Shown here one piece after another: positions 1,795 to 7,055 of a DNA stretch of 64,000 nucleotides. Each line of letters begins with the position of its first letter. Within the stretch, counting starts at the first letter, position 1. The DNA comes from Pseudovirgaria hyperparasitica (taxonomy: Eukaryota), in the NCBI GenBank assembly GCA_010093815.1, contig ML996573.1; one strand, 5' to 3'. The notes under the pieces were generated by a model. The model was not told the DNA's origin and made no database searches. It saw nothing but the letters and a program-made list of their open reading frames with translations. Position numbers and translations under genes: made by a program.

Positions 1795-2352
1795 GGTGTG
1801 TTGTGTGTGTGTGAGAGTGTGAGAGTGTGTTTGTGGTGATGTGAGTGTGAGTGTGAGGGGGAGGAGGACTTGGCAGGTGGTCGTGAGGAGGGTGATGACT
1901 AGCGCGGTGGTGGGTTGATGTGATGGATCGGCGCACGAGGTGTGGCGCGGGGGGTGTGGCGCGAGCGTGGGGGTGCGTGGGCTGCGCGTTTGCCGATTGG
2001 AAGAGAGGATGTTGTTGTTTCTGTGACTTTCAACCCAGATTCACTTTACTTCACGCATTGTTATAACTAGAAATCAACTTCTGGAAAGACTCCATAATCT
2101 ATATTTATATGTTTATATGTATCTGTATGCAGGAATTGACATGCAGCCTGCGCTAGCGACGTCCGATTGTTCCACGAGGTCGGCTCCAGCGCTAAGGATC
2201 ATTAGGCCGTCGCCGACGATGGAGAGAAAAGCCATGGTGGGGAACATCGTGAGAAGACTTCTCGCCGCTCTTCTTCTTCTTCTTCTTTCACTTTTGCTTC
2301 TGCTTCTACTACTACTGCTACAGCTTCAGTCTTCTCTGCTACAGCTTCTGCC

Positions 2353-4628
2353 ATGAGTGTTCCATCCACGCAGGCATCCAATGCCATCATCTACACCACC
2401 TATGCACTCTTTCTGTAAGTTGCGACGGAGGTGGTCCGCAACACTGGACACAAGACTGACTGTGCTCTGTCAGGGTTCTGGGTCTTTACATCGCATGGCG
2501 GTTGAGGAATCAGTCCAAGGGAGAATGGCTCTCTAGCAATCGGACACAGAAGGGTTAGACTATTCGGCGTGACTTGAGCGACATGCCATGCATTCTGTCA
2601 TCGTGCATACAGCTAACATCTCTATATAGCGATACCGCTCGCTCTCAACTTCATCGCGTCGGGTGAGTCAAGACTCGCAAGCATCAATGCGCGGCAGTGG
2701 CACCGTCACAACATCATTTGCGACATATCTTGAGAGAGAGAGAGTGTGTGTGTGTGTGAGCATACACGAGCCCGAGCTCCCACGACACGCAACATGATGG
2801 CATCACGAGAACTTGCCCATGACCAGGTTGGTACTTAAGCTTCTCTGCAGTAGGTCAGGTTGAGGTTCTTGTAGTCTGAAAACGACAACCAAGCACTTTG
2901 ACCTGGCTGGACTGCACGGCAACACTACGGGCGCTGAGCCGGCATCAGATCTTTCATTCCAGATCTGATTGCTTGGCGACGCTGAGATGTACCGTATGAA
3001 CTCGATCAAGATAATGCTTGCGTGAGGAATGTGCTGCCGCTGTCCCCTCCTTCTTTTCTCCTCTGTCTCACGATCCGTGGCTGACCTAGGACTTTCTGAC
3101 ATTTAGCTATGGGATCTTCCATCCTCTTTACGTACCCTCAAATCGCCACTATTGCCGGTGTTCAGGGGCTTGTTGTCTACGCACTCTCGGCGTCGTTGCC
3201 ACTACTCGTCTTTGCATGGCTTGGGCCGATCATCAGAGAGCAGTGCCCTGAGGGTTTCGTGCTCACGGAATGGACCATCCAGCGATATGGACTTGTCACT
3301 GGCTTGTATCTGAGTCTCTGCACGTACGTGGTATCATATGAGAATGGACAAGGAATGACACTAACAAGCCAAAGACTGCTCACATTGTTCCTCTACATGG
3401 TCGCCGAGCTCTCCGCTCTTCAGCAAGTTATCAACGCTCTGACTGGCCTGAATGGCCTACCCGTCGTCATCGTCGAATGCTTCGTCACGACCGTCTACAC
3501 ATGTCCGTCCCCTATCTTCCTCCTCCGTCCCGAATCCTAACTAACATCTCCTCCACAGCTCTTGCCGGCTTCAAAGTTTCTTTCATCACCGACAACATCC
3601 AAGCAGCAATGGTGCTCGGCCTGCTCATCATCTCCGTCGCTGCCGTCGGCTCCAAAACCACCATCGACCGGTCACTAATCCCGGAATCTGGCCTCCTAAA
3701 CTCCTCCCTCCTCGGCTGGCAACTCATCTACATCCTCCCCGTCGCCATCCTCACAAACAACTTCTTCCTCTCCGGCTTCTGGCTGCGCACCTTCGCATCG
3801 CGCTCCAACCGCGACCTCTACATCGGCGTCTCCCTCGCAACCGGCACCATCGCCGTAATCTTTACCTTCGTCGGCGCCACCGGCCTCCTCGCCGCCTGGT
3901 CCGGCGTCTGGCCCGGCGCCGACCCCACCACCGACGGCTCCCTCTCCTTCTTCCTCCTCCTCGCCCAACTCCCCACCTGGCTCGTCGGCATCATCCTCGT
4001 CCTCACCGTCGCCCTCAGCACCTCCGCCTTCGACTCCCTCCAATCCGCAATCGTCTCCTCCGCCTCAAACGACCTCTTCCGCAACCGCCTCAACCTCTGG
4101 CTCATCCGCGCCTCCGTCGTCGCCCTCATCTTCCCCGTCGTCATCGTCGCCCTCAAATCCCCAAACATCCTCACCATCTACCTCATCTCCGACCTCCTCT
4201 CCGCCGCCGTCATCCCCGTCCTCGTCATCGGCCTCTGGCCCAAAGCCCACGCCTGGCGCGGCTGCGACGTCGTCGTCGGCGGCCTCGGCGGCATCTTCTC
4301 CGTCTTCCTCTTCGGCCTCGTCTTCTACCAAGGCGACGCCCGCGCCGCGGGCAATCTCATCTTGCTCAAGAACGGCCTGTATGCGGATGACTGGAGCGCG
4401 TTTGGCGCGTTTGTGGCTGCGCCTGTAGGGGGCTTGTTGTGGGGTGCTGCGTCGTTTGGCGTGCGTGTTGCGGTGCTGTGGGTGTTGGCTAGGGTGCGTG
4501 GCACGCCGTTTACGGCGCTGGATAGGCCTGTGCGCGGGGATGAAGGGATGGTGGTGGAGGACGAGGGTAGGTTTAGTGGGGAGCAGAGTGTCGAGAGGAG
4601 GGATGTGAAGAATGGGCAGTTTTTCTGA
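2353..4628 (+). CDS. Sodium:solute symporter (SSS)-family transporter, putative thiamine/thiamine-precursor transporter (N. crassa NCU01977-like)
   Basis: Six exons assembled in frame: 2353-2414, 2474-2553, 2630-2662, 3107-3323, 3375-3502, 3559-4628. MSVPSTQASNAIIYTTYALFL...AIPLALNFIASAMGSSILFTYPQIA...SFITDNIQ...; many TM helices. The TPP aptamer in intron 3 supports a thiamine-related role. Confidence 0.88.
2917..3039 (+). ncRNA. TPP (thiamine pyrophosphate) riboswitch aptamer in intron 3 (2663-3106)
   Basis: P1 CGGCAACAC 2917-2925 / GTGCTGCCG 3031-3039; P2 ACGG 2927-2930 / CCGT 2992-2995; P3 extension GCCGGCATCAGATCT..AGATCTGATTGCTTGGC; conserved CTGAGA 2982-2987; P4/P5 GAACTCGATCAAGATAATGCTTGCGTGAGGA. 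Confidence 0.95.
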
Positions 4629-4908
4629 TGCTGAAGGGGGGGTCTGGTTGGCTAGGCGAAGGTGAAAGGAGAGGGACGTATGAGATAGGGGGATGTATGG
4701 GACTAGCGATTATTGTGTAAAAAGTTAAAGGCGGTCAAATCATATCGCGAGCAGCGCAACCCGTCATATTAGACCAAATATCACCAGCAGCAGAAACACA
4801 TGAAACATACAAGTCTAGGATCTATGTTCTGTACTGTTTAACCCATAATATATATATATATATATACAAAAACCCCCCTCCCCCCTCCATTGCCGCCCAC
4901 ACGCACAC

Positions 4909-7055
4909 TCACCTCCCACCCGCCAACCTCCAAGCCTTCAACGGCAGCGCCTGCAGCTTCAGTACAGTCGGGCGAATAAACGCCACAAACGTCAGCGCGC
5001 CAATAACGACACACAAGATATTAACAATATAATACCCGTCCGTCGAGATGGTGCAGGCGCCACCCCCAGCCTTGCAGCGAGCCTTGTCCGGCTCCGCAAC
5101 ACAGGAAAAGGGCGCGTCGATGACGTCGACAGACTTCATGTCTGACGGGTTGACGGTGGGCGGGTGGCACGTCGCGACGGTGAACCAGTCGACGAATTTG
5201 AGGACGAAGATGCGGGGGAATGTGCCGCCGAGGTTGGAGACGCTGGGGTGTTTGGGTTAGCGTTTTATTTTTTATTTTTATTTTTACCTTGTATAGGTGT
5301 GTTTTAGTAGGACGGGGAGGCAACTTACGTAGCGAGCAGCGTCATGTACGTGCCGCCGATGACGGGGTCTGAGATCTTGGCGTGGAAAGCCGAGATGGCG
5401 ACAAACATGACCGTGTTCATGAAGGTGCTGAAGACGTGCTCGACGATGACGAGCAGGAGATACCACGTCGTGGTGTCGCCGGCAGGGAAGATCATGACTG
5501 TGAACTGCGCAAAGACGGCTGCGAAGAGGCGGCCGATAAAGGCCCAGGACCACACGCTCATCGGCTGGTACTTCTGGCTCCACTGGCCGGCGTAGTAACC
5601 CAGGCCGATCTCAAACGGGAAGTCGATGAGTACAGTCAGCGCGAGGTCTTCTTGGCTGAATCCCTTGTCGAGGAGTTTGAGGTTCGTGACGCCGTCGTTG
5701 GCCTGGAATCCAATCTTGGCGATGAGGTGCACCACGATGAAGAGTTGGATGTTGCGCAGCTTGAGAATGCCGCCCATGACCTTGTACACGTCCCACACAC
5801 CCTCCAGATTGCGCGCGCGGTCTTCGCGCTTGAGTAGTGCGAGACCGATAGTTGCGACCAGGTATGCCCAGCCCCAGAACCATAGATAGCTGGGCAGCGT
5901 GAGGAGACCCTCGTCCAGGGGCGCGTCGGCGGGGCGGAACCATTTGTTTGCAAAGTCTTTGGAGTTGAAGGCGAGAAATACGGTGTATGAGAGGAACTGC
6001 CCGGCGGTCAGGCCGACGGTTTGGGCAGTGGAGGCGTAGGAGAGATTTTCAGGGGAAAGGAGGGTTAAGGCCCAGCCGTCAACGGCAATGTCTTGAGTCG
6101 CGCACATGAACACCAGGGAGAACCACCACCAAGTGAATTCCCAAACACCACTGGAGGAGGTACCGGCATCCTTCATGAGACTTGAGACGCGCGTGGAGAG
6201 GTACAGCATTCCAAAGCCGGATAGAGTCTGGATAGGGAGGATCCAGCTCTTCCTGCGACCGACTTTGGGGCTCCATATCGCGTCGACGAGGGGACTCCAT
6301 AGAAGCTTGAGTGAATATGGATATGATGCTAGCGAGAAGATACCAATCTCACTGTAGCCAACGAATGGCTTCAGCAGGAACGGCACAGATCCCATAGCTA
6401 AACCCATGGGTATTCCCTGTAAAAAGTACAACCCCACCAACAGTAGGAAGTTTCTCCTGTCCTGCATGGGCATATCAAAGAACCCTATGGCCTCGCCCTC
6501 ACCCTTCTTCTTCTCCTCCGGTATATCATCGTCTAAAGAAAATGTGTCTCGTCCCATGAGATGTTGTGCCTGTGATGCCGAAGAGGGGTCATCCAGTGAA
6601 GAATGCTTGCGGCGATGCTCGAGTAGCCCGTTCATCTCGCCGTTTGCAGACCCGTTCGGACTTTCCGCTAGATATGTAGACGAACTTGCGCCGCGGTCAG
6701 GCGTACTATTGCCTGCGTTTTTGCGGGACTTCTTGGATGGCATCTGATCGTCGCTGTCGGAGTCGAAGTGCGTCGGCGAGGGAAGGGACGTCGAAGAAGG
6801 GTTGGGTATATGAATGGGAGGAACCCGAGGATTACGTTCTACAGATTGCCGAGTGCTCCGATAACTATCAATATCCTGTGTGGAATGTGGAAGGTCTTCA
6901 AGTTCGTGTCCGTTTTCAAGGTTTTGGTGCCTTTGTTGTGTGAGTAGGTTCTGGCGGTGCTGTGCTTCGTGGACAGGGACAGTAGGAAGTAGAGTTGAGG
7001 TCAACGAATGGATGTGAGCACCGGAATGAAAAGAGCCGTCAGGCGGTTGAGGCAT
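4909..7055 (-). CDS. ER acetyl-CoA transporter (SLC33A1/AT-1 family, MFS)
   Basis: LLVGLYFLQGIPMGLAMGSVPFLLK, YPYSLKLLWSPLVDA, ATQDIAVDGWALTLL, DPVIGGTYMTLLATVSNLGGTFP. Intron 5328-5243. Start could be 7055 or the downstream ATG at 6743. Confidence 0.92.

Follow-up and report, generated by a model that had tools for sequence, protein, structure and literature searches.

Among the closest described counterparts of the element analyzed here is the thiamin pyrophosphate (TPP) riboswitch of Neurospora crassa NCU01977. According to the published account (Li & Breaker 2013, Nucleic Acids Res 41:3022; PMC3597705), an element termed alpha (RGCGGYRRY) follows the first 5' splice site (donor) at a distance of less than 60 nt. 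In the absence of TPP it pairs with the 3' shoulder of helix P1 of the aptamer, termed alpha', and the productive donor is thereby favoured. Thiamin leads to the use of several downstream donors and to stop-containing mRNAs; this mechanism was shown by mutation and compensation, and the alpha/alpha' pairing was reported to comprise at least 11 continuous bp in nearly all species (PMC3597705). The Candida gene DUR31 is called both homolog and ortholog of NCU01977 by the authors who studied it (Donovan 2018, PLoS Genet; PMC5997356), and such 'Type II' regulation, a term of Mukherjee 2018, is reported for no family other than this 'urea transporter family' (PMC5882874). We analyzed a 64,000-nt stretch of contig ML996573.1 of Pseudovirgaria hyperparasitica (assembly GCA_010093815.1; hereafter the window), in which the third intron of a divergent sodium:solute symporter (SSS) family gene very probably harbours a Type II TPP riboswitch of the NCU01977/DUR31 kind, the gene itself most likely encoding a thiamin importer. 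The intron, its aptamer, a conserved alpha/alpha' complementarity and non-productive isoforms of the same intron were all observed in the present data.

Host gene, intron and aptamer

The six-exon spliced model of the transporter gene, obtained by three-frame translation and comparison with full-length orthologues, yields a single open frame of 529 residues. Aligned with four full-length orthologues of 525-532 residues, its product is identical at 363-374 of 529-539 columns (about 70%). Introns 1 to 5 measure, in order, 59, 76, 444, 51 and 56 nt, intron 3 being 6-9 times longer than the others; the preliminary description of this DNA had placed a 444-nt intron of unusual length inside the coding region, and exactly this interval was recovered, the remaining introns spanning 51-76 nt. 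The exon joint 2662/3107 reads ..NFIAS-A-MGSSILFTYPQ.. and matches ..NFIASALGSGILFTYPQ.. in the orthologues. The full-length frame is preserved by only two of the 26 GT sites in the intron (2663 and 2705), and a stop at codon 81 results from retention of the intron as well as from all 22 GT sites downstream of 2731. Around the candidate branch site the stretch GCTGACCTAGG is common to the window and to the related locus L053. The coordinates of these and the following features are collected in Table 1.

Table 1. Positions of the transporter gene, its riboswitch intron and the elements within it, in window coordinates
Feature	Position	Strand	Remarks
Transporter gene, coding sequence	2353..4628	+	6 exons: 2353-2414, 2474-2553, 2630-2662, 3107-3323, 3375-3502, 3559-4628
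Riboswitch intron (intron 3)	2663..3106	+	444 nt, phase 1, GTGAGT..TAG
5' splice site for productive splicing (counterpart of NCU01977 S1)	2663..2668	+	donor G/GTGAGT kept in relatives
Alpha element	2691..2702	+	GCGGCAGUGGCA; 28 nt after donor 2663; 8/9 positions of the RGCGGYRRY consensus
First in-frame stop if donor 2663 is unused	2731..2733	+	TGA; stop at codon 81
Alternative 5' splice site	2827..2832	+	cag/GTTGGT; use seen in contigs
TPP aptamer (RF00059)	2917..3046	+	47.0 bits, model positions 1-105 of 105
CUGAGA motif (CTGAGA in DNA)	2982..2987	+	invariant in 16/16 aligned aptamers
P4/P5 arm	3001..3027	+	CUCGAUCAAGAUAAUGCUUGCGUGAG; almost invariant across 16 aptamers
Alpha' (3' shoulder of P1 and bases directly after)	3032..3044	+	pairs with P1 5' strand 2918-2925 or with alpha
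Candidate branch site	3080..3086	+	GCTGACC; 20-26 nt before acceptor; inferred from sequence
3' splice site AG	3105..3106	+	common to productive and alternative isoform
ATG starting deposited model P0017	3109..3111	+	three bases past the riboswitch intron; Leu at this position in orthologues

A search of 1 kb matched the TPP riboswitch model RF00059 to the intron at E = 7.1e-8; over the 64-kb window the E-value was 4.6e-6, with only one other match at E <= 0.05. All strongly conserved consensus blocks of the model were matched across its full length. Among these, the CUGAGA and GAUC..UAAU..GCG blocks were matched in the covariance-model alignment and are invariant in 16 aligned aptamers, the conserved block at 3004-3022 reading GATCAAGATAATGCTTGCG. 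We take the CUGAGA motif to be the pyrimidine-sensing junction and the P4/P5 arm to be the one that senses the pyrophosphate. When 2900-3050 was folded alone, all five helices P1-P5 formed in the minimum free energy (MFE) structure. The complete aptamer that had been proposed earlier, with P1-P5, CTGAGA and the conserved block, is borne out by the full-length model match. The aptamer ends at 3046, 60 nt from the 3' splice site (acceptor) at 3106. On its E-value, its conserved motifs and a position shared among orthologous introns, the predicted aptamer is assigned to RF00059.

Additional features of the intron were recorded around the productive donor and the first in-frame stop. Just past this stop lies a (GA)n(GT)n microsatellite (2732-2757, + strand), which was skipped as a repeat in contig mapping and yields a spurious match to the RF00490 S-element (E 4.1). 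The productive donor GUGAGU can form a 6-bp local hairpin with ACUCGC at 2673-2678 (region 2663-2678, + strand), present in the unconstrained and the aptamer-enforced folds alike; no obvious counterpart of this hairpin was seen among the donor regions of the relatives inspected.

Alpha/alpha' pairing in the window and in relatives

For the window, alpha' was taken narrowly as 3028-3050, and 2353-3019 was searched for partners in 647 tiles of 20 nt. The strongest pairing was with the tile at 2692, which represents alpha (-20.9 kcal/mol, against a background of -8.8 with an sd of 3.5), followed by the 5' strand of P1 itself (-17.9 kcal/mol). The only GCGGYRRY in the intron is located at 2691 (cGCGGCAGU). 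Contiguous pairing between alpha and alpha' extends over 10 bp (2693-2702 with 3035-3044) or, in the canonical register, over 9 bp (2691-2699 with 3032-3040), and this long-range helix forms in the unconstrained MFE structure of 2640-3130. The unconstrained structure is more stable than the aptamer-enforced fold by 7.8 kcal/mol, a rough figure, and this gap could plausibly be overcome by ligand binding.

Homologous introns were collected by a metagenome scan with a 28-protein alignment, in which 250 stretches were matched, 160 of them encoding relatives, and the best 80 were kept. A TPP-like core was present in 60 of the 80 related loci, always ahead of the same exon in those loci where the position of this exon could be fixed, and 44 related loci share the same intron position (..NFIAS-G/GT .. 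YAG/C). These 44 loci and the window, for which both exon ends and the core were available, represent 35 distinct introns (34 of the relatives and the window's own) of 364-742 nt with a median of 467 nt, all of which end in AG. One of the two best alpha' partners starts no more than 60 nt from the 5' splice site in 34 of the 35 introns and at +72 in the remaining one. In 32 of the 35 the RGCGGYRRY consensus occurs no further than 100 nt from the donor, the offset of GCGGYRRY from the donor being 28-82 nt (median 36) across these introns and its background frequency in the window about 0.025 per 100 nt. The distance from alpha' to the acceptor is similarly confined (53-73 nt across introns, 66 nt in the window). 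When alpha' was swapped among loci, the mean pairing energy weakened from -25.0 (cognate) to -22.8 kcal/mol and none of 5000 permutations reached the cognate mean, relatedness among the loci not being controlled in this comparison; in our reading the core is conserved and the flanks covary modestly.

Extended anti-aptamer pairing, in which 2705-2730 would pair with the 3' strands of P5 and P4, was suggested by the MFE structure and rejected for this locus, where it stays at background level (z = -0.01). It reached z < -1.5 in 10 of 34 relatives, and in L036, L038, L040, L043, L045, L047, L062 and L072 the 30 nt past alpha pair with the P5/P4 3' strands at z values of -4.0 to -5.5, which suggests that an extended anti-aptamer helix may form in some lineages, not in the window. 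A second candidate, taken from the aptamer-enforced fold, had the freed alpha folding back on donor 2663; it was likewise rejected (z = +1.08 in the window, median +0.5, with only 2 of 34 below -1.5).

Transcript isoforms and proposed splicing control

Sequence evidence for isoforms of the window gene came from two public runs (X1 and X2) of one sample and one study, whose growth condition is unrecorded and which are not on record as RNA; they contain 83% of the sampled words of 2300-4700. Contigs from these runs skip 2414>2474, 2553>2630, 3323>3375 and 3502>3559, all bounded by GT..AG and corresponding to the four predicted small introns, and because these introns are removed the contigs were taken as transcript-derived. 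In each run one contig is unbroken from 2629 to 2826 and thus passes through donor 2663. The joint 2826>3107 (280 nt skipped, GT..AG, donor 2827) was found in one short contig of each of X1 and X2, and another contig spans 2797-3134 unspliced. Since both of these forms, use of donor 2827 and retention of the intron, read through 2663, translation would stop at TGA 2731 after 80 codons. The productive joint 2662>3107 was present in no contig of X1 or X2, although contigs drop rare variants and the form may exist. At the alternative joint the contigs had depths of 74.4 and 198.9, and the unspliced piece had 27.5 and 55.1; such values cannot rank parts of the gene.

Contigs of related loci exhibited the same tendency by several routes. 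In L002 and L003 all small introns of their genomic twins (L058 and L063, respectively) are removed and the riboswitch intron is kept whole, and in L019 the normal exon is joined to a donor that lies about 140 nt inside the intron, as judged from its genomic near-twin L053. L008, L010 and L079 carry inserts of 239-291 nt that start with the unused donor and contain alpha, the aptamer being absent. A different type was seen in L001, where the first donor is spliced to a cryptic AG acceptor 46 nt on, directly before alpha, and the rest of the intron including the aptamer is kept (L001:195-260 compared with L054:2463-2560); a description of this cryptic-acceptor isoform was not found in the sections consulted of the published accounts. 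None of these seven transcript contigs (L001, L002, L003, L008, L010, L019 and L079) contains the productive junction. L006 and L009 also retain the intron; having no genomic twins, they may be either transcripts or genomic DNA. L007 was rejected as a classifiable isoform, as it opens in non-coding sequence 53 nt ahead of the exon and contains an in-frame stop. The riboswitch reading accounts for the failure of the dominant transcript forms to code for the whole transporter. Together with the alpha/alpha' architecture, the non-productive isoforms agree with the earlier proposal that the intron carries a riboswitch of the NCU01977 class.

By analogy with the orthologues in N. crassa and Candida, TPP would drive the choice between these isoforms. 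At low TPP, alpha' (3032-3044) is expected to pair with alpha (2691-2702), looping out about 330 nt and thereby bringing donor 2663 near acceptor 3106, so that splicing 2662>3107 would create the 529-residue frame. At high TPP the ligand would lock P1-P5, alpha' would become unavailable and donor 2663 would lose its advantage, and splicing from downstream donors (2827, perhaps others) or retention of the intron would give truncated frames. The outcome predicted at high TPP, read-through of 2663 into TGA 2731 after 80 codons and no full-length transporter, is what the isoforms observed here encode.

The use of donor 2827 also bears on a different type of control, known from fungal NMT1 and THI4, in which P4/P5 would mask the proximal donor (here 2827) without TPP and TPP would unmask it, the alpha/alpha' interaction being secondary. 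Donor 2827 is indeed the one seen in use, and for NCU01977 a residual TPP response after deletion of alpha and a possible pairing of P4-P5 with the proximal S4 donor have been described (PMC3597705). However, when the region around this donor (2815-2842) was scanned against 667 tiles, its strongest partners lay immediately 5' of the aptamer (2891, -16.3 kcal/mol) or at other places, and P4/P5 complementarity of the NMT1 type was absent from the six best. The alpha/alpha' arrangement, on the other hand, is kept in 34 of 35 introns, and the alternative donors lie at differing places in the relatives. We therefore regard control by P4/P5 masking as quite improbable at this locus.

Several results weigh against a Type II TPP riboswitch. 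The aptamer scored 47.0 bits, below the Rfam gathering score of 54.3 bits for RF00059 (an operational cut-off rather than a biological feature), and it is missing from a default Rfam scan of the window, which reported only a tRNA gene (RF00005, 34816-34888, + strand, 68.1 bits). The folding energy of the aptamer alone is ordinary (z = -1.32, with 17 of 200 shuffles equally stable), and compensatory changes were found in none of 18 predicted pairs in the 16-aptamer alignment, a MAFFT alignment in which the variable P3 and the 5' halves are misaligned. Support for the aptamer therefore comes from the covariance-model match and the conserved position, not from folding energy. The first consensus position of alpha is C instead of a purine, the alpha/alpha' helix comprises 9-10 bp including 2 G-U pairs per register compared with the published minimum of 11 bp, and its duplex energy of -20.9 kcal/mol lies at the weak end of the range of the relatives (-17.6 to -30.7 kcal/mol). 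An unrestricted RNAduplex comparison of 2655-2760 with 3015-3106 did not stand out, 923 of 1000 shuffles being equally good, and the cognate alpha' was the single best partner of its alpha in only 3 of 32 cases. Finally, contigs from one sample show isoforms, not a response to thiamin.

Taken at face value, the low score, the short alpha helix and the missing productive junction (which contigs may have dropped as a rare variant) would fit a decayed aptamer that no longer regulates, the isoforms then representing error-prone splicing of an unusually long intron. The low score has a structural cause, since P3 carries 46 inserted nt in place of the 11 nt expected by the model and all 11 P3a positions are deleted; the strongly conserved blocks are all present. 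Low scores were also observed in the relatives: in a run on a 19-locus subset of the 80, RF00059 was matched with E <= 0.001 in 15 loci at 38.1-49.4 bits (the other four being unlisted), and all 15 of these orthologous aptamers fall below the gathering score. A sub-gathering score is thus a trait of this aptamer subfamily and not a sign of local decay. In addition, almost no variation is seen in alpha' and in the 3' half of the aptamer across the 16 orthologous aptamers, and the exons upstream of the intron keep an open frame that matches the orthologues, so that the productive splice must be under selection. In view of these findings, loss of regulation strikes us as very improbable. As for the RF00059 match expected by the preliminary description, it was significant by E-value (4.6e-6 in 64 kb) but did not attain the gathering score.

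Cargo, annotation and relation to known riboswitches

The predicted product is a divergent member of the SSS family. Two full-length orthologues (P0021 and P0041) matched the Pfam family SSF (PF00474) with 29.5 and 36.2 bits (cut-off 22.8), and the truncated deposited protein P0017 reached 18.3 bits, below this cut-off. The last exon alone matched no Pfam family, and NCBIfam gave only matches to the SSS superfamily and PanF that lie far below threshold. The SSS assignment made earlier, for a gene usually labelled a urea transporter, agrees with the SSF matches of the orthologues and with the UniRef label of P0017, which is 'Urea transporter'. Judged from the riboswitch intron with alpha/alpha' that it shares with them, and from 54-60% identity over the last exon to proteins of Fusarium, Podospora and Verticillium, the gene probably belongs to the same transporter clade as DUR31 and NCU01977 (clade V of Donovan 2018), a clade placed far from the Dur3 clades of urea and polyamine transporters (PMC5997356).

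By analogy with these orthologues the cargo is most likely thiamin. Deletion of DUR31, not of DUR3, resulted in pyrithiamine resistance in two Candida species (PMC5997356), and a TPP sensor on the gene fits a cargo related to thiamin. The same riboswitch could instead govern import of a precursor (hydroxymethylpyrimidine, HMP, or thiazole) or of urea or polyamines. The UniRef label points in this direction, the original description of C. albicans Dur31 was that of a transporter for spermidine (PMC5997356), and Mukherjee 2018 argued that such transporters may be multifunctional (PMC5882874). General SSS models match the family only weakly, as detailed above, and this, together with the Candida deletions and the distance from Dur3, argues against such a cargo, which we consider unlikely though not negligibly so.

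The deposited protein P0017 (hypothetical protein, Pseudovirgaria hyperparasitica), with 470 residues, is 100% identical to the last exon and equals residues 60-529 of the spliced model; the 59 N-terminal residues and the exons upstream of the riboswitch intron are left out. The truncation arises because transcripts reading through 2663 leave the open reading frame (ORF) starting at ATG 3109 as the longest. For this genome the gene model is corrected from 470 to 529 residues, the first 59 being restored, and the label 'urea transporter' gives way to 'probable TPP-regulated thiamin transporter'. That label was confirmed in UniRef as the preliminary description had it, but the reassignment it proposed is already in print: riboswitch class, mechanism, gene family and relabelling have all been published, and it is this instance that is new. 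No paper naming both 'Pseudovirgaria' and 'riboswitch' was found.

Upstream of the coding sequence, an upstream ORF of 45 codons (2219-2356, + strand), Leu-rich with CTT/CTG/CTA repeats, ends in a TGA that overlaps the main start (ATGA 2353-2356). Transcript contigs start at 2042 and 2087 and cover this ORF, which gives a 5' leader of at least 266 nt. Coding-looking sequence on the minus strand flanks the transporter gene on both sides (1700-1800 and 4900-5500); on the upstream side, a neighbour with divergent transcription is suggested by a CAT at about 1793-1795. Among database orthologues, many have 360-470 instead of about 530 residues, as would be expected if they too were truncated N-terminally at this intron, and several longer ones are fusions to a PX-domain (sorting nexin) neighbour.

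The case of the window leaves knowledge of how such riboswitches work unchanged. What it adds is a corrected gene model, direct isoform evidence and sub-gathering scores throughout a subfamily that mislead annotation. Two annotation traps become apparent: default Rfam thresholds miss a whole subfamily of eukaryotic TPP aptamers, and riboswitch-driven non-productive isoforms mislead RNA-guided gene callers, as once happened for N. crassa NCU01977. All 16 scored aptamers (the window's and those of 15 relatives) are below the gathering score, and a non-productive isoform was found in every classifiable transcript-derived contig, both in the window's sample and in seven environmental contigs. Such non-productive RNA, when fed to pipelines, would lead to N-terminally truncated calls such as the 470-residue model and perhaps many of the 360-470-residue entries. 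We tentatively suggest, as a real possibility short of an even chance, that this family of riboswitch introns is systematically under-detected and itself corrupts gene models. If this were general, riboswitch-gated thiamin import in filamentous ascomycetes would be commoner than censuses suggest, and mostly off in ordinary growth and in nature.

Compared with the described systems, the window gene shares with fungal NMT1 and THI4 an RF00059 aptamer within an intron and an alternative choice of 5' splice sites (Cheah et al. 2007, as cited in PMC3597705). In those genes, by contrast, the aptamers reside in 5' leader introns of biosynthesis genes, P4/P5 masks the proximal donor and upstream ORFs are created (as cited in PMC3597705). 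A further related system is C. parapsilosis DUR31 (CPAR2_502100), which likewise carries a TPP riboswitch in a 5'-proximal intron and encodes the full protein only in its fully spliced form (PMC5997356). Unlike the window gene, it is a yeast gene with a single intron, and thiamin transport was shown there via pyrithiamine resistance (PMC5997356).

The comparison with NCU01977 revealed both differences and shared features. The window intron measures 444 nt, whereas 550-650 nt is reported as frequent for the NCU01977 group; its alpha helix is shorter than the published one and has two possible registers; and the riboswitch intron is the third here and the second there (PMC3597705). With respect to the alpha consensus, 8 of 9 positions are matched in the window. 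In both genes the aptamer is located in a long intron between coding exons, alpha lies near the first donor and can pair with alpha', and the acceptor follows about 60 nt past alpha'; downstream donors lead to stop-containing products in both, and in both the upstream exons and the start codon were overlooked in early annotation (PMC3597705).

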